A DNA stretch of 29,816 nucleotides from an uncultured Planctomycetia bacterium (GTDB taxonomy: Bacteria > Omnitrophota > Gorgyraeia > JACOVV01). Below, piece by piece: positions 7,206-27,473 of this stretch; positions within the stretch are counted from its first letter, which is position 1; every line of letters starts with the position of its first letter. A model generated the notes under the pieces. It did no database searches, was not told the DNA's origin, and saw only the letters and a list, made by a program, of their open reading frames with translations. The DNA lies in contig CAYJQR010000013.1 in NCBI GenBank assembly GCA_964372345.1, positions 1 through 29,816 on the forward strand, in the 5' to 3' direction. The position numbers and the translations under genes are program-made.

Positions 7206-7451
7206 ATGCCGAAGATTCGATCCATGAAAACAGCCATAGACCCCAAAAAACTAGGCAAAAAGATCAAGCTGGCCCGGGTGGAGCAGGACCTGACCCAAAC
7301 CCAACTGGCCGACCTCATCCAGGCCAAGCAAAAGAGCATTTCCCGGTATGAAGGTGGCTTGTCCATGCCATCCGTAGAGACCCTGGTCAAAATCGCTAAG
7401 ACTCTTAGAAAACCTACGGCTTACTTCTTGGAAGATGAGGGAAAGGTATGA
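7206..7451 (+). CDS. XRE-family helix-turn-helix transcriptional regulator (possible controller of the adjacent Mrr cassette)
   Basis: LTQTQLADLIQAKQKSISRYEGG is a Cro/C1-type HTH. A TATATT box lies upstream. The true start may be the second ATG at 7224. Confidence 0.7.
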   Translation: MPKIRSMKTAIDPKKLGKKIKLARVEQDLTQTQLADLIQAKQKSISRYEGGLSMPSVETLVKIAKTLRKPTAYFLEDEGKV

Positions 7452-7454
7452 AAG
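7372..7454 (+). repeat. Direct repeat copy A (3' end of the XRE gene)
   Basis: About 80 bp, roughly 88% identical to 9312..9392 (ccgtagagaccctggtcaaaatcgctaagactcttagaaaacctacggcttacttcttggaagatgag...). Confidence 0.7.
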
Positions 7455-7506
7455 CTAATCAGTATTATTTCGGTTGTCGTTAGTCGTTAACGAAGAAAGG
7501 ATATAC

Positions 7507-8424
7507 ATGGCAATACCAGATTTCCAATCAACCATGCTTCCACTGCTTCATTTTACAGCCGATGGGAGCGAACGGTCATCTCGAGAAGCAATCGAAGGGT
7601 TAGCTGAAAAATTCGGGCTTACGGATGCCGAAAGAAAAGAACTGTTGCCAAGTGGACAGCAATTTACTTTTGATAATCGGCTTAATTGGGCTCGAACCTA
7701 TATGAGCAAAGCCGGCCTGTTGGAACCGACACAACGCGGGTATTTCCGGATAACTCAACGTGGCAAGGAAGTACTTGCGAAAAATCCCTCTACGATTAAT
7801 GTAAAGTTTCTAGAACAATTCCCTGAGTTCATAGAATTCAGAACTAAACACCGAGAACAAAAAGAAACTAAAGCAGCGATCGAAACGGAAACCCTCCAAA
7901 CACCTGCCGAATTGCTTGAAACTGCGTATCAGAAACTTCACGAAGATCTGTCTGCCGAGCTTCTGAAGAACGTGAAGGAAGAATGTTCTCCTACTTTTTT
8001 TGAACGTCTTGTTATCGACCTTTTGGTAAAAATGGGCTATGGCGGCAACCGAAAGGAAGCAGGGAAAGCCATTGGACGGAGCGGCGATGAAGGAATTGAC
8101 GGAATCATCAACGAAGATCGTCTTGGGCTTGATGTCATCTACATTCAGGCGAAGCGATGGCAGGCGCCGGTCGGGCGTCCAGAAATTCAAAAATTCGCCG
8201 GCGCCCTACAAGGACATCGCGCAAAGAAAGGTATCTTTATCACAACTTCTGCCTTTACCAAAGAAGCCGAGGATTATGTCGCGAAAATCGATTCGAAGAT
8301 TGTCCTAATAGACGGCGAACAACTCGCTCAGTTCATGATTGATCACAACATTGGAGTAACTTCGGTTGCCTCATATGAAACCAAGAGGATCGACTCCGAT
8401 TACTTTGCCGAAGGGGCGGCGTAA
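7507..8424 (+). CDS. mrr: Mrr-family type IV (modification-dependent) restriction endonuclease
   Basis: N-terminal winged helix (MAIPDFQSTMLPLL...). Mrr catalytic core LVIDLLVKMGYGG...GRSGDEGIDGI...DVIYIQAKRW. A GAAAGGA Shine-Dalgarno sits 6 nt before ATG 7507. The in-frame upstream TTG at 7474 was rejected. Confidence 0.85.
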   Translation: MAIPDFQSTMLPLLHFTADGSERSSREAIEGLAEKFGLTDAERKELLPSGQQFTFDNRLNWARTYMSKAGLLEPTQRGYFRITQRGKEVLAKNPSTINVKFLEQFPEFIEFRTKHREQKETKAAIETETLQTPAELLETAYQKLHEDLSAELLKNVKEECSPTFFERLVIDLLVKMGYGGNRKEAGKAIGRSGDEGIDGIINEDRLGLDVIYIQAKRWQAPVGRPEIQKFAGALQGHRAKKGIFITTSAFTKEAEDYVAKIDSKIVLIDGEQLAQFMIDHNIGVTSVASYETKRIDSDYFAEGAA

Positions 8425-8457
8425 CATCCGCGTACTGAAAAGAGAAAGCCATAGAAA

Positions 8458-9222
8458 ATGTCTCAATACTACAACGCCAAACGGTCTAGAAATCTTTTTG
8501 ATCCAGAATCACGTGAACCATTCAGATTAAGCCGGACGAAAATTGAATTATTCATCGGTTGTCCGCGTTGTTTTTACCTTGATCGGCGACTAGGAATAGA
8601 TCGTCCTCCCGGCTTCCCATTTAATTTAAACTCGGCAGTAGACACCCTTCTCAAAAAAGAATTTGATCTCTATCGCGCCAAAGGGACTGCCCATCCCTTC
8701 ATGAAAACCTATGGAGTGGATGCTGTCCCTTTTCAGCACGAGAAAATCGAAGAATGGCGGGATGCTCGCAAACGAGGGATTACTTATTTACACCAACCTA
8801 CAAATCTTCTCATCACAGGCGGAGTGGATGACGTATGGATTAACCCTGACAGGGAATTAATCATTGTTGATTACAAAAGCACCTCAAAGAATGGAGAAGT
8901 AGACATAGGCGCCGATTGGCAGATGTCTTACAAGAGGCAAATGGAAGTCTACCAATGGCTGTTTAGGCGAAACAATTTCAAAGTCTCATCAACCGGATAT
9001 TTTGTGTATTGCAACGGGATTACAGATAAAGAATCCTTTAACAATAAACTGGAATTTAATATCAAGCTGATTCCTTACGAGGCAAATGACGCTTGGGTTG
9101 AGGAAACGATCCACGACATCCACAAATGTCTGTTGAGCCACAATATCCCTGATCTGGAAGAGGAATGCGATTATTGCCAGTATTATGATGCGCTGAGATC
9201 AGCAGATGTTTTGGTAAAATGA
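8458..9222 (+). CDS. Cas4/RecB-like PD-(D/E)XK nuclease with four-cysteine cluster
   Basis: The IIVDYKS stretch looks like a (D/E)xK core. Flanking CPRC (N-terminal) and CDYC (C-terminal) pairs resemble the Fe-S ligation pattern of Cas4/AddB-type nucleases. It lies 33 nt downstream of mrr. Confidence 0.65.
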   Translation: MSQYYNAKRSRNLFDPESREPFRLSRTKIELFIGCPRCFYLDRRLGIDRPPGFPFNLNSAVDTLLKKEFDLYRAKGTAHPFMKTYGVDAVPFQHEKIEEWRDARKRGITYLHQPTNLLITGGVDDVWINPDRELIIVDYKSTSKNGEVDIGADWQMSYKRQMEVYQWLFRRNNFKVSSTGYFVYCNGITDKESFNNKLEFNIKLIPYEANDAWVEETIHDIHKCLLSHNIPDLEEECDYCQYYDALRSADVLVK

Positions 9223-9269
9223 TTGATCTATGTGAAAAGGCTGGCTTTGGCCGAGAGACACCAAAATAG

Positions 9270-9392
9270 GAAGCGCTATCAAATATTTCTGAGTGCGGAT
9301 TATTCATAACACCCATAGAGTCCCTAGTCAAAATCGCTAAGACTCTTAAAAAACCCACGGCTTACTTCTTGGAGGATGAAAGAAATGAAAGG
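9270..9392 (+). pseudogene. Start-less 3' fragment of an XRE regulator gene (repeat copy B, displaced gene end)
   Basis: In frame it reads ...ITPIESLVKIAKTLKKPTAYFLEDERNERT*, compared with the intact XRE C-terminus SVETLVKIAKTLRKPTAYFLEDEGKV*. There is no start codon. DNA identity to 7372..7454 is about 88%. Confidence 0.55.
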
Positions 9393-9497
9393 ACATAAAG
9401 TTTAATCAGCTCGAATCGGTAAAAACGTTCTATTATACGTTTATTTGAAGACTTCCAAAGGGGCCGATTTGGGGGTGGAATTGATTTTCTCCAAGAG

Positions 9498-10748
9498 ATG
9501 GTGAAAGTTGGGAAGGCAATCCCGTCGGAGGACGAAGTGAGGAATCTTGAGTTACCAGGAGAAGGTCAATATAAACTGCCAAACGACACCGAGGTTTCCA
9601 ATGAGCTATTGCCGGATCTCCAAGAGAGTGAAGAACGCCAACGGTATTTAAAATTGGCATTAGCACTTCCAATCTCTGAAATATTATTTTCGGTGAGATC
9701 AAAAAATTGTTTAAAAAATCTAAGGATACAACATTTGAAAGATTTAGTTTTGTTGAGCAGAGATCAAATTTTATCCCAGAAGAATGCCGGGAAAAGAAGC
9801 CTAAAGGAGATGAGCGATTTCTTAAATCAGTTGGAACTCGATTTAGGAATGAATTTAACGTCCTCATTATTGAAAGCTATAGAATGGCAGATAAAGAGCG
9901 TTCGGGATCCCGAAAAGCTGATGGAGGATTTTCGTAATTCCTACCCTGAAAAAACCATTGTACTAAAAGAAGTCCGAATCCAAACCATTAAGCCTGAACG
10001 GATGGAATTTTATAAGCCTTGTTTTGAATTATACACGCATGGCGGGACGCTTCAATCTGTTGCTATGGCCATGAAATTGACGCGTGAAAGAATCCGACAG
10101 ATTTTGATAAAGGGGACTGCGTATAAGTTATTCGAGTATAATGGCCGTGAATATCCATATATTTTAAAAGCAAAACTACTTTCAGATTTGAGCAAATACC
10201 CAAGCATGAGTACGGTTTCCAAAATTAATAAAATATCAACGGTATATTTAAAAAGATTACTTCTTGCTTATCACATTACGTCTGAGCAAATGGAGGAATT
10301 TAAGGAAAGGTCCCGGAAGCAACAAGCTATAGAAGATTTCAACGCTGTGAGAGATCAACTTGGCCATAACCCAACGACAACGGAGTTGCAAGCAAATGGG
10401 GAATGGAGGTCTCTTGGAAATAGAATTAGACGGAATTGGGGTAATTTTCAAGAATTTCGGCAAGCGTTAAATATTCCGCCACCACCACCATTTGCTGAAG
10501 TAACCAAACGGTGGATCGAACACAGATCTCGTTTGGCTCTGATTCGGAGAATGCAAGATTTGGATTCAGTTAGAGATTGTCTCGAGAAGTTGGGACCCCT
10601 AAATACATCCGAAATTGCTAGGCGATGCCAATTGAAATCGATGAGAGCGTTTAAATTAACACAACTGCTCTTGGCAACGGGAGAAGTGTCACGTGACGGC
10701 GTGGGAAGCCAGACCAAATACAGAATAAGTAAGATCGGAGGGAGATAA
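9498..10748 (+). CDS. Multi-HTH DNA-binding protein: RNAP alpha-CTD-like domain + sigma-70 region-4-like HTH + HNH-associated-repeat-like motif
   Basis: LFSVRSKNCLKNLRIQHLKDLVLLSRDQILSQKNAGKRSLKEMSDFLNQLELDLGMNL parallels RpoA alpha-CTD ([57 protein letters not shown]). GGTLQSVAMAMKLTRERIRQI resembles sigma-70 region 4. LGHNPTTTELQANGEWRSLGNRIRRNWGNFQEF resembles the GRxPT...FGSW repeat. Its stop abuts the next gene's start. Confidence 0.6.
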   Translation: MVKVGKAIPSEDEVRNLELPGEGQYKLPNDTEVSNELLPDLQESEERQRYLKLALALPISEILFSVRSKNCLKNLRIQHLKDLVLLSRDQILSQKNAGKRSLKEMSDFLNQLELDLGMNLTSSLLKAIEWQIKSVRDPEKLMEDFRNSYPEKTIVLKEVRIQTIKPERMEFYKPCFELYTHGGTLQSVAMAMKLTRERIRQILIKGTAYKLFEYNGREYPYILKAKLLSDLSKYPSMSTVSKINKISTVYLKRLLLAYHITSEQMEEFKERSRKQQAIEDFNAVRDQLGHNPTTTELQANGEWRSLGNRIRRNWGNFQEFRQALNIPPPPPFAEVTKRWIEHRSRLALIRRMQDLDSVRDCLEKLGPLNTSEIARRCQLKSMRAFKLTQLLLATGEVSRDGVGSQTKYRISKIGGR

Positions 10749-12434
10749 ATGAAGATAATTACAAAAACGAAACTGCAAATCAAAGATCAGGGCGAGTTGC
10801 TAAACCAAATTGCAGGCACCTATAAAGACTTTTTTAGAGCGGCTATGGAGTACATCGATAATTCGGTTGATGCGGCTACCGGATTACAGCAAGATGGGAA
10901 GAAATTTTCTGCCAAAATTCATATAGAAGTCGACCCTGACAAGAAGACAGTCTCTTTTGCTGATAACTGTGGGGGAATGTCGCCTCAGGAATTGTGCGAG
11001 TTATTATCAAATGTGGGCCGGTCTAGAAAAAAGGCAGTTTCTTGGGCTAATGGACAATTTGGATTTGGCGTTCACGCCTTTAGAGCTTTTGCTAGGGAAG
11101 CTATTTTTATAAGTCGGAAGAAGAATTGTAAAGAAGCAATGATAAAGATAGATCGCACAGTCCATGAAAACCAAGATGTCCCATGTGTAGAAACGGATGT
11201 GAAACAGCTTAAGGAGCCGGGAACGCGGGTTATTATTTCTCGATTTGATTCACATGTTTTTCAAAAGGCCACTTTCGTCAAAACTTTAGCCGCTGAAGTC
11301 GAACATCATTTCGACGATGTCTTGAGGGCTAAATTAGCACGTATCTCTATTTCTGAGAAAGATAAAAGATCGCACGAATGTTCCCATTTCGATTTCGACT
11401 CGCTACCAGGTCCTGTTTTGAAAAAAACTTTTTCTTTGATGTCTGATGGAAAACAAAGCGAAATTGAAGTTGATTTAAAGGTTTTAGATCGTGTTCAAGA
11501 TAACAGATTCCCTGTTCTCACAAATAAATGTCGACGAGTTCAAAATATTTCTGATTTGAAAAGCTATAAAAACTTTTTGAGAACAAAGGGAGAGATAAGT
11601 TACATATGGAACAACCCTTTTGTGGTTGGCTCCATTGAAATTAACGGTTTTTGCTCTCCAAATTTAACCAGAGACGACTTAAAGGATTTAAAAGAACGCG
11701 AGCAACTGTACGAAAAGATATGCGAAGTACAGAATGATCTGAAGCACTTGATTGATGAAACGATGGATAAAAAAACTAGGGAATCATTTCGAAGAATTGG
11801 AAGTATAATGTCGGATTGCCTGGCTCAAATACTTAAAAATTTTAAGCTTGAATTCGAACAATTAGCTCCTTCAGGCATTACCGGGAATCTTGCGGAACAT
11901 ATTGAAGAAGGAAACGGGAAAATACCATTCGGCGGTGACGATGAGCCGGGTGGCGGTGGACCAGGTCCAAATGAAGAAGGTTCGGGGGGTAGACGATCTG
12001 ACGAAGGCAGATCAGGTGTTGGTAAAGATGAAAAAGGTGGCGGAGCTAATGATAAAAGAAAAACTTCTGGCCAAGGAGGAGCATCGACGGAAAAAATTAT
12101 TCAATCGCCTGGACCCAGGATCGAATTTCAAAATCATGCCGGAGAAGACAGAGTTATCGATTTAGGAAACTCCCTTATCGTCAACACACAGCATTCGGAT
12201 TTCATATTAAGGAATCCACGATCAACAGGTAAGATCAAATTCGACGTTAGGTTATTGAATTACGTCTCTCAAGTTGTGTCTCCATATTGTGTCCACAGAC
12301 TATTCGAGCGTAAAGGAAAAGTACCGTCCGTATCAGAAGTTGGGGCAAATGTAATTAATCTAAGTTTGAATCTCGAAAAAGAGTTGCTTAAAACCGTTTT
12401 GGGGACAGAAATAGATACAATGGTATATGCCTGA
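10749..12434 (+). CDS. GHKL (Bergerat-fold, MORC/MutL-like) ATPase with Gly-rich low-complexity segment
   Basis: N-box EYIDNSVDA, G1 box DNCGGM and G2 box GQFGFGVHA are present. A GGAGGGA Shine-Dalgarno precedes the ATG. Residues about 395-450 form a G/D/E/K-rich disordered stretch. Confidence 0.8.
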   Translation: MKIITKTKLQIKDQGELLNQIAGTYKDFFRAAMEYIDNSVDAATGLQQDGKKFSAKIHIEVDPDKKTVSFADNCGGMSPQELCELLSNVGRSRKKAVSWANGQFGFGVHAFRAFAREAIFISRKKNCKEAMIKIDRTVHENQDVPCVETDVKQLKEPGTRVIISRFDSHVFQKATFVKTLAAEVEHHFDDVLRAKLARISISEKDKRSHECSHFDFDSLPGPVLKKTFSLMSDGKQSEIEVDLKVLDRVQDNRFPVLTNKCRRVQNISDLKSYKNFLRTKGEISYIWNNPFVVGSIEINGFCSPNLTRDDLKDLKEREQLYEKICEVQNDLKHLIDETMDKKTRESFRRIGSIMSDCLAQILKNFKLEFEQLAPSGITGNLAEHIEEGNGKIPFGGDDEPGGGGPGPNEEGSGGRRSDEGRSGVGKDEKGGGANDKRKTSGQGGASTEKIIQSPGPRIEFQNHAGEDRVIDLGNSLIVNTQHSDFILRNPRSTGKIKFDVRLLNYVSQVVSPYCVHRLFERKGKVPSVSEVGANVINLSLNLEKELLKTVLGTEIDTMVYA

Positions 12435-13321
12435 TGAAAGCTAATGTTCAGACTATAATTAAAGCGATATCGGATTCAAATAATAGATATCGGGATTCCT
12501 CCTCAGATACAAGAACCAAGCTTGAAGCTCTGTGGAATATTGGAGATTGTCTTGTGCGGCTTGGCGTAAATAAGCCGCATTCGATGGGATGGATCGTACA
12601 AAAAGAGACAAAAGGTCTCATTAAGAGGCCAACAATATTTCGAAGTTTCAAAATTCGTCAAATATGGAACTCAAAGGACGATCTTCTGCGTGATATCGGG
12701 AATATTAAAGGGGTCAACTTCTTGATAGACATGTTGCCGTTAATCGATCCTCGGCAAGAAGTTCGAAAGAAGCTTAAGGAAGATGAAATTAAACAAATCT
12801 ATAAGAAGGCATGTGCTAGTTCTGTGGGTCAATTCAAAAGTTATATTGTAGAATTGAAAACTAAATATTCTCACGATAGGCTTGGCAAACGGCTAGATAA
12901 GTCGAAACACTTGGTAGAAATAGAATTTGTAACTAAGAATTTCGGCTCATTGCAACGTTTTCTTCTAGGTCTCATCCAGCAAAAGGAAAGTACTGGGCGT
13001 GATAGATTCAGACAAGAAATCAAGCGTGAGGAATTTCGCGCTTTTTCCAATATGTGTATTTCCCTAACGACCAAAAACAATATCCGTTTATATAAGAAGG
13101 CAGGGGTTTCTCTTTCGAATACAGAGAATCAGCAGTTTAAAGTTTTGTACGATTATTTTTACTCAATTCTCAATAAAGCAGCTGACACGGAACGCGCAAG
13201 AGTTCGTCGCTTGATTTCTCCAGAAGCTTTTGCGCAAATGTCTGATATTATCTCTTCGATTCAAAATGAAGAAAGTTTAGACGACTTTAGACTTAGACAA
13301 CAATTATCAATAGGGCTGTGA
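12434..13321 (+). CDS. Hypothetical protein (295 aa), candidate effector/nuclease partner of the GHKL-Dam operon
   Basis: The start overlaps the upstream stop by 1 nt (TGATG) and the stop lies 1 nt before the methyltransferase start. No family motif was recognised. Confidence 0.6.
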   Translation: MKANVQTIIKAISDSNNRYRDSSSDTRTKLEALWNIGDCLVRLGVNKPHSMGWIVQKETKGLIKRPTIFRSFKIRQIWNSKDDLLRDIGNIKGVNFLIDMLPLIDPRQEVRKKLKEDEIKQIYKKACASSVGQFKSYIVELKTKYSHDRLGKRLDKSKHLVEIEFVTKNFGSLQRFLLGLIQQKESTGRDRFRQEIKREEFRAFSNMCISLTTKNNIRLYKKAGVSLSNTENQQFKVLYDYFYSILNKAADTERARVRRLISPEAFAQMSDIISSIQNEESLDDFRLRQQLSIGL

Positions 13322-13322
13322 C

Positions 13323-14222
13323 ATGCAACCATTTCTAAAATGGGCTGGTGGAAAACGTTGGCTGATCCCCAAGATTAAAGACAGCATCCCTCCGTTCAGA
13401 ACTTATTTTGAACCATTCTTAGGAAGTGCCGCCCTGTTCTTTGCATTGGAACCTAAGTCGGCAATTTTATCGGACACCAATCCGGAACTCATAGGTTGTT
13501 ACAGAGTTATCAAGAACCATTGTGAGTCTATGATCAAAGTATTAGAGAGATTAAAGATTACAAAATCGGATTATTACGCAATTCGAGAAAAATTTAATAG
13601 TGGGAACGAACCAATTAAGAAAGCAGCATACTTCATTTATCTGAACAAAACTTGCTGGAATGGTCTTTACCGCGTGAATAACCACGGCAAATTTAACGTG
13701 CCAGTCGGTACGCACCTTCAGCGTGGGTATAAGGTCTTCGACGCGGATCATTTGAAGAATGCTAGTCGTCTTTTAAATCGGGCCATAATTAAACGGTGCG
13801 ACTTTGAAGAAGCAACAAAGGATGCTAGAAACAAAGATCTCGTATACTTTGATCCTCCTTATATAACAACGCATTTAAAGAATGGTTTTATCAAATATAA
13901 CTCCGTCTTATTTCACCAGTCTGATGAATTGCGATTGGCAAAAGTGGCGGAAAAACTGGCTAAGCGTAGAATTCAAGTAATTCTAAGTAATGCCGCTCAC
14001 CCACTAATAAAACAACAATATAACGGATGTTTTTACAAAACGGAAATATTACGGCCTAGCCTAATTGCTGGGGATCCCTCGAAAAGGACAAGGTTTCTTG
14101 AGCTTCTTGTTACTAGTTTTCCACTGACTATAGAGACCAGAGAATATTCGGAGCGCCAAGATGAAGCTATTCCTAAAGATGTACGGTATAAGCCTTTTTA
14201 TAATCCAAAGTGTAAATTTTGA
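13323..14222 (+). CDS. Dam-family (D12 class, alpha-group) N6-adenine DNA methyltransferase
   Basis: N-terminal LKWAGGKRWLIPKI...FEPFLGSAALFF matches the AdoMet motif. The catalytic motif IV is VYFDPPYITT, compared with E. coli Dam VYCDPPYAPL. Confidence 0.85.
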   Translation: MQPFLKWAGGKRWLIPKIKDSIPPFRTYFEPFLGSAALFFALEPKSAILSDTNPELIGCYRVIKNHCESMIKVLERLKITKSDYYAIREKFNSGNEPIKKAAYFIYLNKTCWNGLYRVNNHGKFNVPVGTHLQRGYKVFDADHLKNASRLLNRAIIKRCDFEEATKDARNKDLVYFDPPYITTHLKNGFIKYNSVLFHQSDELRLAKVAEKLAKRRIQVILSNAAHPLIKQQYNGCFYKTEILRPSLIAGDPSKRTRFLELLVTSFPLTIETREYSERQDEAIPKDVRYKPFYNPKCKF

Positions 14223-14309
14223 AGACTGCGCGTAAATATGGGATCGAGTTTGGGCATTGGACAGAGTAGGAAATAGAGACGGTTCTTGTTTTTGACCGCG
14301 AAGTGATAA

Positions 14310-14537
14310 AATAAAAACCGCCCCTATTTATTATCGAAGAATTCGCCATCCGCCAAAGGGCAGGATGAAATCGTTGGATTCGTTAAAAAGCGGCTGGAAC
14401 TCGGAAGAGCGGCTGAAGGAAAAACTCCCGAAATTGAGGAGATTGAGCGGGCCATCAACGTTGCTGTTTATCGCCTTTACAGCCTCACAAAAGAAGAAAT
14501 TACCATCGTAGAACAGTGTGGGGTGAAAGATAAATAG
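14310..14537 (+). pseudogene. C-terminal remnant of a type IIG/Eco57I-like (gamma-class N6-MTase-containing) restriction-modification enzyme
   Basis: A start-less ~75-codon frame ends ...KTPEIEEIERAINVAVYRLYSLTKEEITIVEQCGVKDK*. That is the characteristic ...ID.lVy.LYgLTeEEI.iVE C-terminal helix of Eco57I/PglX/TaqI-type enzymes. An in-frame stop lies immediately upstream. Confidence 0.4.
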
Positions 14538-14539
14538 TT

Positions 14540-15127
14540 ATGGATATTAATGATATCCAAGAGCTGCATTTTATTACGGATATAAAGAATGTTGATTCGA
14601 TTATGCGAGAAGGTATTCTGTCGCATAACAAGGCGGGTAGAATTCCTCATCGCTCGATTGCGGAGCAGGGTGTTCAAGAGCGCAGGCAAAATAAAAAAAT
14701 TCCCGGCACAAACAAACGTTTGCATGATTATACAAATCTGTATTTCAATGCCCATAATCCCATGCTTAGTGCGAGAAGGCAGCTGAATGATTCGATTTGC
14801 GTCTTGCGCATCAATAAACATGTTTTGTCTATAGAAGGGGTTATCATCACAGATCAAAATGCAAGCAGGGATTGTTGGTTCAAGCCGGTATCCGAGGGAT
14901 TACCATTACTGAAGCATGAAGAGATTTTTGCTGAATTTTGGATCAATAGAGAAGATCCAATGGAAGAATATCGATTGAAGGGCATAAAATGCGCTGAAGT
15001 CTTAGTGCCAAAGTGCGTTCATCCATCACACATTTTATCGGCATACGTAGCCAATAATACTGCGCTGAGCGATTTTAAAAAGGCGTCGACTTTATCTGTG
15101 CAAATTAATGGGAATTTGTTTTTCTAA
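14540..15127 (+). CDS. darT: DarT, ssDNA thymidine ADP-ribosyltransferase toxin (DUF4433)
   Basis: LHFITDIKNVDSIMREGILSHN...RSIAEQGVQERRQNKKIP...LHDYTNLYFNAHNPMLSA...CAEVLVPKCVHPSHI follows the DarT pattern (hFTHi.NL.sIL, HDYVPFYF, catalytic-Glu EvLV). A macrodomain gene lies directly downstream. Confidence 0.7.
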   Translation: MDINDIQELHFITDIKNVDSIMREGILSHNKAGRIPHRSIAEQGVQERRQNKKIPGTNKRLHDYTNLYFNAHNPMLSARRQLNDSICVLRINKHVLSIEGVIITDQNASRDCWFKPVSEGLPLLKHEEIFAEFWINREDPMEEYRLKGIKCAEVLVPKCVHPSHILSAYVANNTALSDFKKASTLSVQINGNLFF

Positions 15128-15138
15128 AGGGGGGTATC

Positions 15139-16251
15139 ATGGAAATCTTAATCGGGGATATATTCAACTCTAAAGCGCAGACATTAATTAACACTGTGAA
15201 TTGTGTCGGCGTTATGGGCAAGGGAATTGCGGCCGAATTTAAAAAACGCTATCCGGAGATGTTTGATGATTACATTTCACGATGTCAAAAAAGAGAAGTC
15301 AAGCCCGGCATTCCTTATTTGTTTAAAACCTCGTCATTGTTTGTTCCACAAGTCGTCAATTTCCCTACAAAGACCGATTGGCGCGCGGCATCTCATGTTG
15401 AGGACATAGAGAAGGGTTTGAAGATTCTTGTGTCAAAATACAAAGAATGGGGGGTTAAGTCAATAGCCGTTCCCCCATTGGGTTGTGGCAACGGGCAGTT
15501 ATTATGGGAAACCGTAGGACCTTTGATTTATAAATATCTGTCCAAATTGGATATCCCGGTTCAAATGTATGCTCCATATGGCGCCCCGTCAGTTCAATTG
15601 ACGGAAAAATATCTTTCCCGGGCGTTTGACTTGAAGGAATCCAAGTCAGAAGATGCTATTCTGCAAAAGATGAACCCTGCTTGGGCTTCACTGGTCGAGA
15701 TAGTGTATCGTCTCGAAAAACAGACTTACCATTTGCCTGTAGGCAGAACTATTTTTCAGAAGATAGCATATGTCGCTACAGCGCTTGGCATCCCTACTGG
15801 GCTGGGCCATGTTCGTGGACCCTATGGCCCATATTGTAAGGCACTGGATGATGTTAAGAAAAGATTGTCAAACGCGGGATTGTTGCAGGAAGAAAGACTC
15901 GGGCCTATGTTTCAACTTGTTCCGGGACATGCTTATGAAAAGGATCGTTCAAAATATCAGGACAGCTTTCGAAAATGGGGCAGCCTGATCGATAAAACAG
16001 TTGACCTTTTTCTTAGGCTAGATACCCATAAGGCAGAGATTGTAGCTACCGTTTTGTATACAGAGAGGACAATAAATAAAGGGCGCACGACCGAGAAAGA
16101 TGTCCTTAATGAGGTTGTGAAATGGAAACAAAAACGCCGTCCTCCGCTCAATGAAATAGAAGTGGCCGAAACAATTCGTAATTTAGGAATACTAAAATGG
16201 TTTGATTTGAAACCATCAACCGATATGCCAATTCAGGACGATTGGGTCTAA
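15139..16251 (+). CDS. darG: DarG, macrodomain DNA ADP-ribosylglycohydrolase antitoxin
   Basis: N-terminal macro domain LINTVNCVGVMGKGIAAEFKKRYPEMFDDY...VVNFPTKTDWRAASHVEDIEKGL...IAVPPLGCGNGQLLWETVGP closely parallels DarG (VNTVNTVGVMGKGIALQFK...PLGCGNGGL). A strong AAGGGGGG Shine-Dalgarno is present. It lies 11 nt after darT. Confidence 0.75.
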   Translation: MEILIGDIFNSKAQTLINTVNCVGVMGKGIAAEFKKRYPEMFDDYISRCQKREVKPGIPYLFKTSSLFVPQVVNFPTKTDWRAASHVEDIEKGLKILVSKYKEWGVKSIAVPPLGCGNGQLLWETVGPLIYKYLSKLDIPVQMYAPYGAPSVQLTEKYLSRAFDLKESKSEDAILQKMNPAWASLVEIVYRLEKQTYHLPVGRTIFQKIAYVATALGIPTGLGHVRGPYGPYCKALDDVKKRLSNAGLLQEERLGPMFQLVPGHAYEKDRSKYQDSFRKWGSLIDKTVDLFLRLDTHKAEIVATVLYTERTINKGRTTEKDVLNEVVKWKQKRRPPLNEIEVAETIRNLGILKWFDLKPSTDMPIQDDWV

Positions 16252-16606
16252 TTACACGAAAGTTTAATAAACAGCAAAGTTCCTGCCTCTTTCGAGCGAA
16301 AAAGTACCAGGCGGTTATCCACAGGGACAACGATGGTTATGAGATTTTACGGTAATCGGCTTCTTTGAGAATAAAGACGTGATGTTGAAGCACCAGTTTA
16401 AAGAGAATCGGTTCCGATTTTAATGCATTAAAGATCCTTCAATCATTAAAGTGTTAAGGAATCTTCCGAAGATCAAAAACCCAACCGTCTTTTTCCCCTA
16501 AAACGTCCCATCAGGGCTAAAACCATCAAAAAATTCAAATGGGAAATAGTGGACGGTACCGTTGCCTTTTGCTAAACTATTTTTTTTGGAAGGGTCCAAA
16601 ATCAGG

Positions 16607-17776
16607 ATGCCAAATGAGTCAAAGGATTGCGAAAAATCAACCCCGAAACAAATGCATTTTAAGATACCCAAACTAGATAAGTTGGTTGGGATTATCGATG
16701 ACGTTATCCCCGCAGGCGAGACTGGCAGAATCATGGTCAAAGGGTTCCTGACATCGGATGACCCAAAGTTCCATATTGCAGCCGACCACATCTCCGCGAT
16801 TCTTCTAAACAAGCACGTCCAGACAGACTCGGTAAATACATTCTTGGCCCTCCTGCATCAGGATCAGTCTGCTGATGTATACGTAAACGACATCGCTATT
16901 GGCATTCAGGTACATGCCAAACGATCACTGGTCAAGGGGGAAGCCGTGAGAGTGAACGACATCGTCGACATTAAAGCTCTGCGTTTTCTGGAAATCAAAG
17001 TTGAGCAAACGGACAATATCATATTTCTGTTCAAAAAAGGGTGGAAGTTCGGGTTCTTCCTCAACTTGCAACAGTGGGAGGGAAAGAATAAATTGGATGT
17101 TGCGAGTCTTGAGAGGGAACTTGGGGATTACTACAAATACCTGGCTTTTGAGAAAGAATTGAAGGTTATAGAGGACAAGCAGTCGTTTGAGGAGTTATTT
17201 GATGATGGGTGGTTCCCGTTTATCCAGTTGCTCGGAGGAGAGTATCCAGAGCTTGGTCACATCTACCAGACAGGTGAGAAATCAGGTGAACCAATGGAGC
17301 AATTCCTGAATAAGTTCGGTCAGGAACGGATAGCCCGTATGAAGCAGAACTGGTGGGATTGTCCCGTGTTCGCTGCCAAGAAAGTAATCATCGAAGCGGC
17401 TCTTTCCTCGTATCTTTTGATGACCGGCACAGGATTTATCAACTGCATCAAGAATCTCTATTCCGAGATTGAAGGAGTTATCCGAGTGAGCTGTCACCGG
17501 AAGACTGGTCAAAAACCCACTTTTTCAAAATTGGTGACCTTCCTGGAACACAAGGCAGCAAATAAGTTCACATCTATCAACTCCCTTGCTTTTCCACCGA
17601 TATTTGCAAAGTATCTCAGAGAGGTGATTTTCAAGGATTTCGACCTTTCAACAGGGCAAGTAGACATATCACGGCACTCAGTGGTTCATGGTGTTGCCGA
17701 GGCTGTTGCATATTCGCGAGCTAAAGCTCTTCAGTCGATTCTCACACTCGATCAAATTTACTTTTACCTCATATGA
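16607..17776 (+). CDS. Hypothetical protein (~390 aa), possible C-terminal HEPN-like Rx4H motif
   Basis: Long ORF in the AT-rich island. The first ATG in the frame was chosen. No clear family match. ISRHSVVHG near the C-terminus fits the HEPN Rx4-6H pattern; this is weak evidence. Confidence 0.55.
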   Translation: MPNESKDCEKSTPKQMHFKIPKLDKLVGIIDDVIPAGETGRIMVKGFLTSDDPKFHIAADHISAILLNKHVQTDSVNTFLALLHQDQSADVYVNDIAIGIQVHAKRSLVKGEAVRVNDIVDIKALRFLEIKVEQTDNIIFLFKKGWKFGFFLNLQQWEGKNKLDVASLERELGDYYKYLAFEKELKVIEDKQSFEELFDDGWFPFIQLLGGEYPELGHIYQTGEKSGEPMEQFLNKFGQERIARMKQNWWDCPVFAAKKVIIEAALSSYLLMTGTGFINCIKNLYSEIEGVIRVSCHRKTGQKPTFSKLVTFLEHKAANKFTSINSLAFPPIFAKYLREVIFKDFDLSTGQVDISRHSVVHGVAEAVAYSRAKALQSILTLDQIYFYLI

Positions 17777-17814
17777 TGGGAGGAGTAACATAATAGTTAG
17801 GGGGAAAATTGCTA

Positions 17815-18336
17815 ATGAGTTACGTGATGGTAGATGTTGAGGCGGATGGGCCAATCCCGGGAGATTATTCAATGATCTCTTTTGGAGCGGTTATTGTTGA
17901 ATCAGCGCTATCGAAAACCTTTTATGGGAAATTAAAACCGATCTCAGGAAAGTGGGAACCGGAGGCATTAAAGGTGAGTAGATTGACTCGTGAAGAAACG
18001 TTAAGTTTTGAAGATCCGAAATCCGTTATGGAAAGGTTTGCTGTTTGGATCAGGGAAAGCTCAAAAGACAGGCCGATCTTCATATCGGACAACAATGGTT
18101 TCGATTGGCAATTCATTAACTGGTATTTTCACCATTTCTTGGGGCAGAATCCATTTGGTTTTTCATCAATGAATCTGGGGTCGCTCTATAAGGGGCTTGT
18201 TCGGGACACGTTCAAAAACTTTAAGCATCTGCGTAAAACAAAACACACGCATCATCCTGTTGATGACGCGAAAGGTAACGCGGAAGCGTTATTAGAACTG
18301 AATCGAGAGTTTGGTCTGAAAATGCAGTTTGAATGA
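17815..18336 (+). CDS. Stand-alone DEDDh (DnaQ-like) 3'-5' exonuclease, 173 aa
   Basis: Exo I motif VMVDVEADGP, Exo II ISDNNGFDWQFINW and Exo III HTHHPVDDAKGNAEALLEL (H-x4-D) are present. An AGGGGGA Shine-Dalgarno lies 8 nt upstream. It sits 38 nt after the preceding gene. Confidence 0.75.
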   Translation: MSYVMVDVEADGPIPGDYSMISFGAVIVESALSKTFYGKLKPISGKWEPEALKVSRLTREETLSFEDPKSVMERFAVWIRESSKDRPIFISDNNGFDWQFINWYFHHFLGQNPFGFSSMNLGSLYKGLVRDTFKNFKHLRKTKHTHHPVDDAKGNAEALLELNREFGLKMQFE

Positions 18337-18338
18337 AA

Positions 18339-18542
18339 CTAGGAAACAGTACTTTCTTTGATATAAACCTCAAAAGAGTTATTTCGTAACCGTATCCCGC
18401 GTATTCGCGATTTTGGAATCCAGGTTTTTATTCCTGCATCAACTAATACTGCCTTTTCGGTCTCGTGTAAGAAGCGAACCCGGATCCAAATGTGTGTCTC
18501 TTGAGGACATAGAAGCCAATAGAAACCAAATGGCCGGATCAT
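18339..18542 (-). CDS. Small hypothetical protein (67 aa)
   Basis: An internal ATG is preceded on the minus strand by AAGGAGA at ideal spacing. The longer 122-aa form would add an Ala/Arg/Ser low-complexity N-terminus encoded by a GC-rich tandem repeat, which is judged unlikely. Convergent with the exonuclease gene, 2 nt apart. Confidence 0.4.
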   Translation of the reverse strand: MIRPFGFYWLLCPQETHIWIRVRFLHETEKAVLVDAGIKTWIPKSRIRGIRLRNNSFEVYIKESTVS

Positions 18543-18610
18543 GGGTTTGTCTCCTTGAACTGGCAGGCACTGACCACGGTCTTCTTGCTTACGTTTAGGC
18601 TTTTGGCGAT

Positions 18611-18705
18611 CTTCGGGCCAGTGGCTTCCCTCGGCTTCCCTCGGCTTCGCCAGTCTCGCCGAGGCTAGGCGGGCCGAGAGGCGAGCGCCACTAGGCGAGC
18701 GAGAC
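18611..18705. repeat. GC-rich tandem/palindromic low-complexity element (GGCTTCCCTC x2, GGCTTCGCC, CTCGCCGAGG..., GGCGAGCG x2)
   Basis: Read directly. It is a local GC-rich patch within the AT-rich island, lying in the 5' region of the minus-strand small gene. Confidence 0.4.
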
Positions 18706-18766
18706 ATGCCTAAAAGTCGCAGTTGGTTTACCTTTTGGGCGAGTTTTTGATATAGTAGTGAGGCCT

Positions 18767-19383: not shown

Positions 19384-19471
19384 GGAGAGGTGTCCGAGCG
19401 GCCGAAGGAGCCGGTCTCGAAAACCGGTAGAGGCTTTAAGCTTCTCGTGAGTTCGAATCTCACCCTCTCCG
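19384..19471 (+). tRNA. tRNA-Ser (anticodon CGA), long variable arm, no encoded CCA
   Basis: Acceptor GGAGAGG/CCTCTCC. Anticodon stem CCGGT/ACCGG with loop CTCGAAA. T-arm GTGAG-TTCGAAT-CTCAC. Discriminator G. Confidence 0.85.
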
Positions 19472-19525
19472 TTCTTCTTCGCCCTTCACCAACTGAGATG
19501 ATGGTAGGGCTTCGAAGCAACGATC
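19472..19525 (+). repeat. tRNA 3'-trailer element, copy 1 (TTCTTCTTCGCCC...GATGATGGTAGGGCTTCGAAG)
   Basis: Shares its core with 19613..19665 and 22884..22935, and partly with 21778..21806. Confidence 0.5.
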
Positions 19526-19537
19526 GACGGCCTTTAC

Positions 19538-19612
19538 GCGCCAATAGCTCAGCCCGGATAGAGCACCTGCCTACGAAGCAGGTTGCCGCAGGTTCAAATC
19601 CTGCTTGGCGCA
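19538..19612 (+). tRNA. tRNA-Arg (anticodon ACG)
   Basis: Acceptor GCGCCAA/TTGGCGC. D-arm GCTC...GAGC. Anticodon stem CCTGC/GCAGG with loop CTACGAA. T-arm GCAGG-TTCAAAT-CCTGC. Discriminator A. Confidence 0.85.
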
Positions 19613-22958: not shown

Positions 22959-23678
22959 ATGAAGGCTCTGATTGTCAAGAATGTTTCGGAAGAATGCCCT
23001 GGGTTATTAGAGGAAGTGCTGGCGGAACGCCGTTCCTCCTTTGACACGATTGACCTTGATCAAGGGGATGTTTTTCCGAACCCTCTAAAGTACTCGGCCC
23101 TTTTTGTTTTTGGCGGCCCCGACAGCGCCAATGATTTTACCCCAAAGATTCAAGGCGAACTCCAGAGAATTCGAGAAGCGTTAGATGCCGGCATCCCTTA
23201 TCTGGGGGTCTGCCTGGGGATGCAATTATTAGTGAAGGCCTCGGGAGGAGAAGTCTATCGCAACCCCGTCAAAGAGGTCGGATGGAAGGGGCCGGAGGGA
23301 GATTATTTTTCTATTGAACTCACTGAGGAAGGACATTCGGATCTCCTTTTTAAAGGGATATCTTCTCCTTTAAAGATATTCCAAATTCACGGAGAAACTG
23401 TCCGGCTGACAAAAAAGATGACGTTACTGGCCCGGGGGAGGTATTGTAAAAATCAAGCGGTGAAAGTCGGCGATACCGCCTACGGCATTCAAGGGCATTT
23501 AGAGCTGACTCCTGCCATGTTTGAAGAGTGGCTGACCCAGGATGACGACCTAAAAAAAGTCAACCCTATCTCTTTAAAAAAAGATTACCGGGTTGTCCGA
23601 GTGGAGTACGAAAGGAACGGGAGAGCTATTTTGAATAATTTTCTAGAACTGGCCAGGATAAAGGCGCCGCAATGTTAA
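22959..23678 (+). CDS. Class I glutamine amidotransferase-like protein (GATase1)
   Basis: Nucleophile elbow GVCLGMQLL (G-x-C-x-G) and ...IQGHLE (His) are present. 239 aa. Confidence 0.75.
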   Translation: MKALIVKNVSEECPGLLEEVLAERRSSFDTIDLDQGDVFPNPLKYSALFVFGGPDSANDFTPKIQGELQRIREALDAGIPYLGVCLGMQLLVKASGGEVYRNPVKEVGWKGPEGDYFSIELTEEGHSDLLFKGISSPLKIFQIHGETVRLTKKMTLLARGRYCKNQAVKVGDTAYGIQGHLELTPAMFEEWLTQDDDLKKVNPISLKKDYRVVRVEYERNGRAILNNFLELARIKAPQC

Positions 23679-25213
23679 AACGCTGGTTCGTCAAAGAAGA
23701 CCTCGACGGGTTTTTCGGGCTGGCGCTGGATAATTTTATCCAATTTATCCTGATTGTTACGACGGGAAAAGCGGTCTGCGGGTTTCCCAATGAATTATTG
23801 TTTGGCCGCATCCTTCCGGGAGCGGCCGTTTCGCTTTTATGGGGAAACGCCTTTTACGCCTGGCAGGCGCGCCGTATCGCGCGAAAGACCGGCCGAAGCG
23901 ACGTCACAGCCCTTCCGTATGGAATCAACACCGTCACTCTTTTTGCCTACATCTTTTTTATCATTGGGCCGATCTATCAGCAGACCCACAACGCCGAACT
24001 GGCGTGGCAGGTGGGGCTGTTGGCTTGTTTTATCAGCGGCGTTGTTGAGTTCTTGGGGGCATTCATCGCCGAAGGAGTGCGCCGCGTGACTCCAAGAGCG
24101 GCGCTGTTATCTTGTCTCGCCGGAATTGCTGTTTCATTCATCTCGATGGATTTTGTTTACCGGACTTTTGATAAACCACTGTTAGCGTTATTGCCATTGG
24201 CCATTTTGCTGACCAGCTATTTTTCTCACATTCGACTGCCATTTGGCGTTTCAGGAGGGCTGGCTGCCGTGTTGGTCGGGATGGCTCTCGCGGCCGTCTT
24301 CGGAGTTTTAACTCCATTGACCGCGCAAGATTTTCAGCAGATTCATTTTCGTTTCCCACAATGGTTTGGCCCCGATCTCTGGCAGGTGATGAACAGTCAA
24401 TATATCGCCGGGTATCTTTCGATCACCTTGCCGATGGGGATTTTTAACGTGGTTGGTTCCCTGCAGAATATCGAAAGCGCCCGGGCGGCCGGAGACACTT
24501 TCCCGACACGGTCGTCGCTGGTGGTCAACGGCGCCGGTTCGATGCTGGCGGCCCTTTTGGGGAGTTGTTTCCCGACGACGATCTACATCGGCCATCCCGG
24601 ATGGAAAAAGATGGGAGCACGATGGGGATACTCTTTGCTCAATGGTTTAGTAATGACGATTCTGTGTCTGAGCGGAGTAATCACGTTGCTGGTGAAGTGG
24701 GTCCCCCTAGAGGCGGGGATGGGGATTTTATTGTGGATCGGAATTATCATTACGGCGCAAGCGTTTCAAGAAACCCCTAAAGAACACGCGCCGGCAGTGG
24801 CCCTCGGCCTCTTCCCATGTCTGGCGGCGTGGGGACTGTTCCAGTTAGAGACGGGGCTCCGCGCCGGCGGCATGACATTGTTTAATCTAGGAGCTTCGGC
24901 CTTTGAGCGAATTCCCGCTCTGAGTGGCATTCTGGCGCTGGAAAAGGGATTCATTTTTACTTCGATGATCCTTGCGGCGATGGCAGTTCATTTGATCGAA
25001 CGTTCCTTTGGGAAAGCCGCTCTATGGGCAGGGATCGCAGCCGTTCTCTCATTCTTGGGAATTATCCACTCATATGAAATTACTCCCGGAGGCGCCGTCA
25101 GCCATCTTGGATTGGGCATGGCGCCTGTTTTTATGTGGAGTTATCTGGCGATGGGAGGGTTATTGGTCTTCCTGCATTCTTGGAGAAAACAGAACTCAAA
25201 GAGCCCGCAATAA
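23672..25213 (+). CDS. NCS2/AzgA-like permease family integral membrane protein
   Basis: More than 10 predicted TM segments. VVNGAGSMLAALLGSCFPTTIYIGHPGWKKMGARWG resembles the AzgA/PbuG conserved ...GS.LG...GTSP.T.YIES..G...GGRTG segment. The start overlaps the upstream gene by 7 nt. Confidence 0.55.
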   Translation: MLKRWFVKEDLDGFFGLALDNFIQFILIVTTGKAVCGFPNELLFGRILPGAAVSLLWGNAFYAWQARRIARKTGRSDVTALPYGINTVTLFAYIFFIIGPIYQQTHNAELAWQVGLLACFISGVVEFLGAFIAEGVRRVTPRAALLSCLAGIAVSFISMDFVYRTFDKPLLALLPLAILLTSYFSHIRLPFGVSGGLAAVLVGMALAAVFGVLTPLTAQDFQQIHFRFPQWFGPDLWQVMNSQYIAGYLSITLPMGIFNVVGSLQNIESARAAGDTFPTRSSLVVNGAGSMLAALLGSCFPTTIYIGHPGWKKMGARWGYSLLNGLVMTILCLSGVITLLVKWVPLEAGMGILLWIGIIITAQAFQETPKEHAPAVALGLFPCLAAWGLFQLETGLRAGGMTLFNLGASAFERIPALSGILALEKGFIFTSMILAAMAVHLIERSFGKAALWAGIAAVLSFLGIIHSYEITPGGAVSHLGLGMAPVFMWSYLAMGGLLVFLHSWRKQNSKSPQ

Positions 25214-25420
25214 CACTGAATGAGAGGAGGCTTCAGGTTCCACCCCAGTCACCGACCCAGAGGGTCCCTGAATTTTTGGTACTCAACAAAGCCAGGATTT
25301 GAGGTAGATAGAGTTGCCGTGCTGGGTTTTGAAAATCAGTGAGATAAAAGGGCGAAGAGGAAGGGTCAGAAAAAATGCGGCCTACCCCTTGACAACGGGA
25401 AATCATAGGGTAGACTTGTG

Positions 25421-27223
25421 ATGGCTTGTATGAAGCTGCCAACGGGGTTCACTGAATATTTACTGCCTCTTTACCTTGAAACACAAGCCTATTCCCATGG
25501 TAAACTTTCTCTAATTGCCAATACCGACATACCTAAGGAAAGCGTCTTAAAGAAGATTTCTACGGTGATCAAAATGAGAAATCTCATCCAGTGGAATCAT
25601 TGGTTCAATCAACTCATTACGGGGATGCTTATTGTTTCCTGTTGCGAACAAACAGGTAATCTTTACTTACCTATAGAGCAATTATCCCCACCACAAATGA
25701 CGAAGAGGGAAGTTTTTCAAAATCAAGATCCAAGGAATTCATTAGAGATAACGACGTTATTAAGCGATCTTGCGCAAAAATTTTCAACATCGTCTTATCC
25801 TATCCAAAAATATGAAACATTGATTAAACTATTAGCCAGCCCCAATTCACTTGGAATTGATGTCTTAAAGAATGCATTTGACCGAGACCCCAACGGTTTC
25901 ATTCACGCTATCCATTATATTCACGGTAATGTCTACTCTTTTAAAACGTTACTCAATACCTTTGGAATTGAAACTGTCAGAGAGGCTTTCAGCAATGATC
26001 CAAGTGGATTCGCTAATTCCATAAAAACCCTTTCCAATATGGGTAAGAGCCGATTACAATTCATGAAAGTATTTCACAAATTAGCAAATAGTCTTGTCGG
26101 CATCTCATTTTTAAGAAATTCTTTTGCGCAATATCCTTATCCTCTTACACTCGCTCTTGCGTTATTGAGAAGTTCTATAGATTCACTTGTGGAATATATC
26201 AATGAAAACGGCACGGATATCAATCCCTTACTCAGTAAGAAAAATATTAAACTAGCGATTAATAATGATGAGGTTTCTTCTCTTAATACAACCATGGGGT
26301 TAATCAAGTTACTACATATCAGTGCGCAAAATGTCATTATCGGTTATTCTACAGAGGTAACGCAATCTCTTGCAGAGGAGAGATTTCCCCCTATTCAGTA
26401 CCAAGTGAAACCTTATTTTCCACTTAAAAATTCTAGCTCACAAGGACATTTGATCTTTGTGGAGTATACAGAACATGTTTTTACAAAACCTCGAACATTG
26501 GGTCTTTCACCGGATCCCTTTAAGTATTCTTTACCCTCTTTTGCTTCCGAAGAAAGCCGTTCTTCACTTCGAAATTCGATGGCGATAGAAAATCGAAAAA
26601 TAATTGTAGTAACAAGTCCTCAACCGAGTGAAGCTCAGATTTTCCAAGAAGCTTATAGAAAAATATTTGGAGATCTACCCACTGCCGAACGCCCCCTTGT
26701 GATCCTGGCCCCTCGTTACCCGAACCCTACACTAGTCTCATTACTGGAGTCAAATGGATTTAAGGCGCAAAATCGTGATACAGAAGAAGAACCTCTCTCA
26801 TTACTTGGAGAGCAGGACTTTGTTGTTTTAAATACATACGGTGAATTACTAAAGTTCTTTACGGTGGCAGACCTTGCTATTGTAGGACATGATCGCAATC
26901 TTTTTGAACCCGCCAGCCAAAGAGTACCGATTCTCTATTTCGGCGGTCATTGGTCTAATAACCAAACAGCTAAAAGAGTGCTCGATGAATCTGGTGGAGC
27001 GATGGAAATTAACCCTCGGTACCTTGACAAACAGATTTTGACTATTCTGGAAGAACCAGAAGATATTAAAGCAGGTCTTCAATCCGCTGTGAAGCGTTTC
27101 GAACAACAAATCTTTCCATCGGCTCAACTATACACTCTATTAATGCTGACATCTGTCATCTTCGAATATACGGAACAATCCTCTGTAGCTAGTCAAGAAA
27201 ATGCTTCCCTTAGAGCGTTGTGA
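25421..27223 (+). CDS. AT-rich 600-aa protein: N-terminal novel ~40-aa tandem repeats fused to a Kdo-transferase (GT30)-like C-terminal domain
   Basis: The C-terminal ...NTYGELLKFFTVADLAIVGH...NLFEPASQRVPILYFGGHW... matches the KdtA/WaaA C-domain (DTMGEL..LY..ADLAFVGGSL...NPLEPAA.G.PVL.GP). Three repeats are LGIDVLKNAFDRDPNGF / FGIETVREAFSNDPSGF / VGISFLRNSFAQYPYPL. Confidence 0.55.
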   Translation: MACMKLPTGFTEYLLPLYLETQAYSHGKLSLIANTDIPKESVLKKISTVIKMRNLIQWNHWFNQLITGMLIVSCCEQTGNLYLPIEQLSPPQMTKREVFQNQDPRNSLEITTLLSDLAQKFSTSSYPIQKYETLIKLLASPNSLGIDVLKNAFDRDPNGFIHAIHYIHGNVYSFKTLLNTFGIETVREAFSNDPSGFANSIKTLSNMGKSRLQFMKVFHKLANSLVGISFLRNSFAQYPYPLTLALALLRSSIDSLVEYINENGTDINPLLSKKNIKLAINNDEVSSLNTTMGLIKLLHISAQNVIIGYSTEVTQSLAEERFPPIQYQVKPYFPLKNSSSQGHLIFVEYTEHVFTKPRTLGLSPDPFKYSLPSFASEESRSSLRNSMAIENRKIIVVTSPQPSEAQIFQEAYRKIFGDLPTAERPLVILAPRYPNPTLVSLLESNGFKAQNRDTEEEPLSLLGEQDFVVLNTYGELLKFFTVADLAIVGHDRNLFEPASQRVPILYFGGHWSNNQTAKRVLDESGGAMEINPRYLDKQILTILEEPEDIKAGLQSAVKRFEQQIFPSAQLYTLLMLTSVIFEYTEQSSVASQENASLRAL

Positions 27224-27387: not shown

Positions 27388-27462
27388 GTCTCTGTAGCTC
27401 AGCCCGGACAGAGCACTAGCCTCCGGAGCTAGGTGTCGGGAGTTCAAATCTCCCCAGAGACG
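27388..27462 (+). tRNA. tRNA-Arg (anticodon CCG); CCA encoded at 27463..27465
   Basis: Acceptor GTCTCTG/CAGAGAC. D-arm GCTC/GAGC. Anticodon stem CTAGC/GCTAG with loop CTCCGGA. T-arm GGGAG-TTCAAAT-CTCCC. Discriminator G. Confidence 0.85.
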
Positions 27463-27473
27463 CCATTAATATC

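Follow-up and report, generated by a model that had tools for sequence, protein, structure and literature searches.

The window, by which we mean the whole 29,816-nucleotide stretch of DNA that was analysed, contains a low-GC island at about positions 7000 to 18500, with a GC content of 39-45% against about 51% in the flanks. The low-GC stretch starts after a tRNA-Ser(GCT) gene (6695-6787) and ends before genes for tRNA-Ser(CGA) and tRNA-Arg (19384-19612), and the flanks carry housekeeping genes for complex-I-like subunits, a DEAD-box helicase, DnaX and RecR. Within the island lie genes for an Mrr-type type IV restriction enzyme (7474-8424), a Dam-like methylase (13323-14222), DarT (14540-15127) and DarG (15139-16251), the last two recognised by both Pfam and PADLOC, together with a Cas4-like PD-(D/E)XK nuclease, a GHKL ATPase and a protein with RpoA-CTD and sigma region 4 motifs. 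The island is closed by the two forward-strand genes studied here, gene A and gene B, and in the ORF list these are followed by a convergent 122-aa ORF on the minus strand (18339-18707). The first-pass annotation of this DNA had described A and B as two co-directional genes, 38 nt apart, between DarTG and a convergent gene, and we confirmed these coordinates.

In the ORF list, gene A extends from a TTG at 16562 to 17776 (404 aa), and the first-pass annotation had used the ATG at 16607 (16607..17776, 389 aa). We favour the ATG at 16652 (16652..17776, 374 aa), because this is the start given by the database copy of the protein (P0001, 374 aa) and by the N-termini of its relatives; residues are numbered from it below. 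Gene B, a DEDDh exonuclease of 173 aa, occupies 17815..18336 from an ATG, or starts from a TTG at 17809. The gene B ATG lies 38 nt beyond the gene A stop on the same strand, no terminator was predicted between the two genes, and scans for promoters and terminators gave background levels. Given the short gap and the lack of a predicted terminator, A and B are probably co-transcribed in the window. A link between gene A and DarTG was considered and rejected: DarT and DarG are complete by themselves, a spacer of about 400 nt precedes gene A, and DarT and Macro families are absent among the families that adjoin relatives of gene A in other loci.

No model in Pfam, NCBIfam, PADLOC or PHROGs matched gene A, for which the first-pass annotation had likewise recognised no family. 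The protein belongs to a family of its own, here called family A, with 296 relatives at E <= 0.001 in a collection clustered at 90% identity, all of them annotated as hypothetical, and 1283 representative clusters from bacteria and archaea at 50% identity and the same threshold. Nearly all members are about 375 aa long and are covered over their full length by the family profile; N-terminal extensions are present in a few (HTH_3 in two, HTH_17 in one and UDG in one). In 45 aligned members, whose identity to the window protein is 39-71%, 25 columns are invariant, among them S340, R341, H346 and G347. Matches of gene A to Rttp106 (E 0.016) and to UvrB in the PDB (E 0.006-0.2) were rejected, being below threshold and gaining no support from the fold, and weak SAF matches in four of the 45 members are unconfirmed. 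The family profile found nothing among PDB sequences. A phage origin of gene A was also rejected, with no relative found in the viral contigs of IMG/VR, nor in PHROGs.

An AlphaFold2 model of gene A, built from the family alignment (pLDDT 93.8, pTM 0.88), has three parts: a beta-rich N-terminal domain, a helical middle and a C-terminal helical bundle. The N-terminal alpha+beta domain (residues 1 to about 145-148; 16652..17095, + strand), a candidate sensor or regulatory domain, has the invariant residues G13, S35, F40, L65, H69, D106, F112, W131 and F133, and no fold match to it was found among solved structures in the PDB. The helical middle, delimited by the secondary structure of the model (residues ~149-243; 17096..17380, +), contains an invariant DGWFPF motif (185-190) as well as W234 and K243. 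The C-terminal HEPN-like domain covers residues ~244-374 (17381..17773, +).

In the HEPN superfamily, helix 3 is described as ending in an Rx4-6H motif whose R is followed by a polar residue (N, D or H), and helix 2 as carrying a conserved acidic residue, typically within Ex3[KR] (PMC3710099). Gene A has both signatures. The first-pass annotation had noted ISRHSVVHG near the C-terminus as compatible with a HEPN active site, and the family bears this out: the predicted catalytic Rx4H is RHSVVH (R341-x4-H346; 17672..17689, +), just before the last helix and with H346 28 residues from the C-terminus, and R-x4-HG occurs in the last 70 residues of 222 of 230 full-length members. The residue after the R is polar in all 222 (H in 195, N in 25, D in one and Q in one). 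By a rough estimate, about 0.5 Rx4H matches would be expected by chance in a protein of this size, so it is the retention of the motif in 222 of 230 full-length relatives that shows it to be no coincidence. The Ex3[KR] signature is EIEGVIR (E274-x3-R278; 17465..17485, +) within a long helix, residues 259-285, that corresponds to helix 2. In the 45-sequence alignment G275 is invariant and E272, I273 and R278 are nearly so, and 198 of the 230 full-length members have [ED]Gxx[RKQ]. Helices 291-305 and 315-326 then match the usual insert and helix 3, and the last helix spans 356-373, so that the order of Ex3R in a long helix, helical insert, Rx4H and last helix is that of the published HEPN topology.

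The structural check that had been proposed for gene A gave a divided answer. Foldseek with the full model returned nothing significant from the PDB (best E 0.93), whereas motifs and topology fit a HEPN domain. None of the curated HEPN profiles (Pfam HEPN_*, PADLOC ApeA/Abi, NCBIfam) scored above threshold; the best values in the 45 members were 0.0073 for HEPN_AbiU2 and 0.64 for HEPN_Apea, in one member each. On balance, we consider it very probable that the C-terminal domain of gene A is a HEPN domain. Gene A would then be a HEPN domain and a putative regulatory domain combined in a single defence-type protein that lies outside every curated family.

The downstream gene had been described as a minimal, solitary DnaQ-like exonuclease, and this description holds: the DEDDh residues are complete (D7-x-E9, D97, H146-x4-D151), and Pfam matches were obtained to RNase_T (1e-7) and Rv2179c-like (2e-6). 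What had been overlooked is the close kinship of gene B with Cap18 of CBASS. Gene B matches the PADLOC model PDLC00753, a CBASS 'Effector/Exonuclease', at 6.8e-41, and PDB entry 7T2S, Cap18 of E. coli upec-117, at 3.4e-28 with 43% identity over 131 aligned residues. It resembles Cap18 and CBASS Exo in size, in its DEDDh motif and in this level of identity, and differs from them in its setting: Pfam and PADLOC scans of window ORFs revealed no CD-NTase, cyclase or other CBASS gene, and the much larger family to which gene B belongs consists of solitary genes. That family contains at least 8000 clusters at 90% identity, the best 120 of which are 71-100% identical to gene B, and the named sources of the relatives include Omnitrophota, Elusimicrobiota, Chitinophaga, Arenicella and the archaeon Methanoperedens. 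No CBASS genes were found in those loci of relatives whose genes were listed, where the neighbours are varied and unrelated, and the exonuclease also occurs alone on plasmids. Judged by its sequence and surroundings, gene B is a close relative of Cap18/Exo that appears to stand alone, outside CBASS, which is an uncommon setting for such an enzyme. The Cap18-like neighbour also raised the idea that gene A might be a divergent CD-NTase; this was rejected, the fold being HEPN plus an unknown domain, and PADLOC cyclase models did not match gene A.

The CBASS relatives offer some guidance as to what gene B might act on. According to a preprint, CBASS Exo and Cap18 do not degrade DNA or RNA; they are reported to cleave selectively a 2'-5'-linked linear intermediate of cGAS-like enzymes and thereby to set an activation threshold (bioRxiv 10.1101/2025.03.04.641389). 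Protection by the Cap18 system is unchanged when Cap18 is catalytically dead. All of the VcExo contacts named in the preprint have a counterpart in gene B, as judged by spacing only: D7, E9, P13, E48, E50 and V54 of gene B would correspond by spacing to D9, E11, P15, D49, E51 and V55 of VcExo, and N93, D97, F116, H146 and D151 to N97, D101, F120, H157 and D162. By analogy, short nucleotides are the most likely substrates of gene B, and these could possibly be 2'-5'-linked, like those of its CBASS relatives.

The first-pass annotation had interpreted the two genes as a candidate two-gene module for defence or abortive infection and had set co-occurrence of the pair across genomes as a check. 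We sampled 68 loci of family A and 88 loci of the exonuclease and searched them with tblastn in both directions. No exonuclease was found within 6 kb of family A in any of the 68 loci, and no family A gene was found in any of the 88 exonuclease loci, 50 of which include at least 1.2 kb of upstream sequence. The closest relative of gene A (P0002, 71% identity) has an unrelated gene (MNTGIVKNTG...) 21 nt downstream. An SDH-type protease precedes an exonuclease with 91% identity to gene B, and two exonucleases with 86% identity follow an unknown 222-aa protein in one case and AbiEii in the other. The gene directly 5' of the exonuclease has the same direction in 56 of 72 loci and belongs to many unrelated families, AbiEii being the sole recurrent partner (6 of 41 close co-directional partners, redundant contigs included). 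Outside the window, the pair was seen only on three further contigs, all from the same organism in other samples. Two of these extend upstream of the exonuclease; on one, the gene A protein is identical over the 279 residues covered, and on the other a 404-aa gene A protein falls in the same 90%-identity cluster. Lack of synteny elsewhere is the outcome that the first-pass annotation had named as refuting its proposal. The two-gene module is therefore not supported, and A and B are most probably separate single genes, horizontally mobile and independent of each other, that happen to adjoin at the far end of a defence island.

Family A is sparse and widely scattered: a collection with a single genome per species, 185,579 species in all, yielded only 65 loci, in Omnitrophota, Planctomycetota, Firmicutes, Chloroflexota, Bacteroidota, Cyanobacteria, Poribacteria, Patescibacteria, ANME-1, Bathyarchaeia and others. 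No partner gene is conserved across the sampled loci. The 123 immediately flanking genes include 10 type III Mod methylases, 5 ResIII, 2 HsdM and 1 DpnI, along with 3 integrases and 2 resolvases; the remainder are varied, and many are housekeeping genes. In eight Poribacteria loci, from eight species, the family A gene lies between mod and res, with a gap of 51-150 nt to mod upstream and of 96 nt to res downstream. In locus L002 it sits between an integrase and HTH gene on one side and a type I restriction-modification (R-M) operon directly downstream, and type I genes also flank it in locus L004. About 10-12 of the 68 loci, mostly from Poribacteria, have the gene embedded in an R-M operon, which is not the case in the window. 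Distant homologues (23-31% identity) occur on rhizobial and Rubrobacter plasmids: on Agrobacterium pAtLMG305 a Swt1-family HEPN gene directly follows the homologue, with Shedu nearby, and AbiEii lies near the Bradyrhizobium homologue. Such a distribution fits an accessory, horizontally moving gene, and its neighbours are suggestive of an association with defence.

Several characterised HEPN systems are useful for comparison. The abortive-infection HEPN RNases ApeA, AbiU2 and AbiJ share with gene A a C-terminal HEPN domain with Rx4H, its polar residue and Ex3R, and family A is like them solitary, sporadic across phyla and often found in or beside R-M operons and defence islands. Gene A differs from them in that none of their profiles reaches threshold and in an N-terminal domain without a solved fold. 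The anticodon nucleases PrrC and RloC are likewise larger proteins that end in a HEPN nuclease. PrrC lies inside a type Ic R-M operon that silences it, and the position of family A between type III mod and res in Poribacteria recalls this arrangement; but most family A genes, the window copy included, are outside R-M operons. Moreover, PrrC and RloC have an N-terminal ABC ATPase, a domain that Pfam does not find in gene A, whereas family A has an unrelated alpha+beta domain of about 145 aa. In the MNT-HEPN toxins (PDB 7AE2, 5YEP and 8XDJ), a minimal HEPN protein of about 130 aa is paired with a nucleotidyltransferase antitoxin, in contrast to the 375 aa of family A and its lack of a conserved partner gene.

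The explanation that we infer, covering RNase activity, a trigger mechanism, a defence role and the substrate of the exonuclease, is that gene A probably encodes an autonomous HEPN RNase that stays off until triggered, and that gene B acts independently of it, probably on short nucleotides. If it works like the HEPN enzymes that have been characterised, its active site would arise through pairing of two HEPN domains and would be built from R341, H342, H346 and E274, and RNA cleavage would be metal-independent, leaving 2',3'-cyclic phosphate ends. The N-terminal and middle regions would hold the nuclease inactive in the absence of a trigger, which in some lineages could be a breakdown of the adjacent type III R-M system, in the way known for PrrC and EcoprrI. 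The result would be growth arrest of the infected cell. The gene stands by itself in variable regions and is found time and again within or beside R-M operons, and on this basis we suggest a role for gene A as a second-line RNase of the abortive-infection type, like ApeA, AbiU2 and PrrC. More tentatively, family A could be a single-gene anti-phage system in its own right, with the N-terminal domain sensing an infection cue or R-M failure and in turn switching on the HEPN RNase; we regard this fuller version as possible but somewhat short of an even chance.

Three other readings were weighed against this one, and the most serious of them ties gene A more strictly to restriction-modification. 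It would make gene A an obligate R-M accessory, a PrrC-like guard silenced by R-M proteins, with the window copy being either an orphan or a partner of the island's Dam-like methylase or Mrr. The mod-A-res loci of Poribacteria, the Mod and ResIII genes among the immediate neighbours and the type I cases in L002 and L004 all point this way, as does the fact that at least 16 HEPN clades have been linked to R-M operons (PMC3710099). Yet about 80% of the sampled family A loci have no adjoining R-M gene, the R-M-linked cases come mostly from one phylum, and the nearest R-M-type genes in the window are 2.4 kb (methylase) and 8 kb (Mrr) away, with DarTG in between. We therefore consider an obligate dependence on R-M unlikely.

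Lower still we rank the idea that A and B are a lineage-specific pair, in which the exonuclease would serve the HEPN protein as antidote, regulator or co-effector, perhaps trimming the RNA products of gene A or degrading a nucleotide signal. The shared strand, the short gap without a predicted terminator and the regulatory, threshold-setting function of the CBASS relatives of the exonuclease would all suit such a pair, and the two genes do occur together on three other contigs. Those contigs are from the same organism, though, and set against them are the empty results from both sets of loci, the different neighbours of a 71%-identical gene A and of 86-91%-identical exonucleases, and the absence of any conserved partner throughout family A, all of which make a lineage-specific pair improbable. 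Marginally less credible again is a reading modelled on the HEPN domains attached to nucleotidyltransferases, in which the C-terminal HEPN-like bundle would bind rather than catalyse and any enzymatic activity would reside in the N-terminal domain. Non-catalytic HEPN domains typically lose Rx4-6H (PMC3710099), whereas family A has kept the R and the H in 222 of its 230 full-length members, along with the polar residue after the R and Ex3R. A triggered, autonomous HEPN RNase beside an independent exonuclease thus remains our preferred explanation for the locus.

Setting aside a two-gene system spares an experimental detour and allows each gene to be considered for itself. HEPN proteins with novel N-terminal domains near R-M genes are a theme that is already well described; family A is a case of it that Pfam, NCBIfam, PADLOC and PHROGs do not list. 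Should family A prove to act as an anti-phage RNase, the HEPN defence proteins would gain a further sensor domain, and a second nuclease sitting within an R-M operon would be known, independent of the first. Under the tentative single-gene reading, it would be a guard of type III R-M systems analogous to PrrC and built from different parts. As for gene B, Cap18-like enzymes are evidently far commoner outside CBASS than inside it, and, more speculatively, the highly conserved solitary Cap18-like exonucleases, which occur on chromosomes as well as plasmids, might be free-standing degraders of 2'-5'-linked nucleotide signals.

The family of solitary Cap18-like exonucleases to which gene B (17815-18336, plus strand) belongs is huge, with 8000 or more clusters at the 90% identity level, and has matches in bacterial phyla and an archaeon. 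It is also unusually conserved, the best 120 matches being 71-100% identical to gene B. The neighbours of the exonuclease vary in nearly all the loci fetched (L069-L156), and only one upstream partner recurred where the preceding gene was close and co-directional (41 loci). This was an AbiEii nucleotidyltransferase toxin, found upstream of the exonuclease in six of the 41 (L076, L079, L080, L082, L084 and L097), a count that is not fully independent because some of the contigs are near-identical. Exonucleases approximately 39% identical to gene B are also common on Klebsiella conjugative plasmids, which account for 40 of the 98 matching plasmid records. In the one Klebsiella locus that we inspected (L163, K. 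pneumoniae pMTY12137, 5980-6528), the exonuclease is solitary, adjoins umuD and a group II intron, and does not lie within a CBASS operon.

Next to gene B in the window is a convergent ORF of 122 aa (18339-18707, minus strand), whose N-terminal half is rich in arginine and lysine and whose C-terminal part weakly matches phrog_8389, a PHROG of unknown function (E 2e-4). GC content rises to about 52% at this ORF, marking the island's end. At 7474-14222, an Mrr-type type IV enzyme (7474-8424) and a Cas4-like PD-(D/E)XK nuclease (8458-9222) precede a run of four genes with little or no space between them: a 416-aa RpoA-CTD/sigma-r4-like protein (9498-10748), a 561-aa GHKL ATPase (10749-12434), an unknown 295-aa protein (12434-13321) and a Dam-like methylase (13323-14222). 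None of the PADLOC system models matched the middle genes of this stretch, and 7474-14222 could represent a multi-gene defence system outside the existing classes. A further patch of low GC (36-43%), the second in the window, lies at 25418-27223 and holds the gene for a 601-aa protein with no match in Pfam or PADLOC, flanked by tRNA-Arg(CCG) at 27388-27465 and a 513-aa ORF (23672-25213) that likewise lacks annotation.

A few members of family A, the relatives of the predicted HEPN protein encoded by gene A, carry N-terminal extensions (P0366, P0380, P0011 and P0324), namely an XRE-type HTH in two, HTH_17 in one and a UDG-superfamily domain in one; at locus L002, the family-A gene is closely preceded by a stand-alone HTH gene of 68 aa. 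These features may hint at autoregulation or may instead stem from gene-calling fusions. On Agrobacterium tumefaciens pAtLMG305 (L161, 5920-8269), 17 nt separate a distant family-A homologue (29% identity) from the gene after it, whose annotated product is a Swt1-family HEPN protein. A Shedu SduA gene lies close by, and the locus has two HEPN proteins in tandem within a plasmid defence island. Finally, in eight Poribacteria species (L028, L035, L039, L042, L043, L045, L049 and L067) a type III Mod methylase gene lies upstream of the family-A gene, and in several of these (L035, L039, L043 and L049) a ResIII helicase gene lies downstream, giving a mod-A-res order that recalls the placement of prrC inside EcoprrI.
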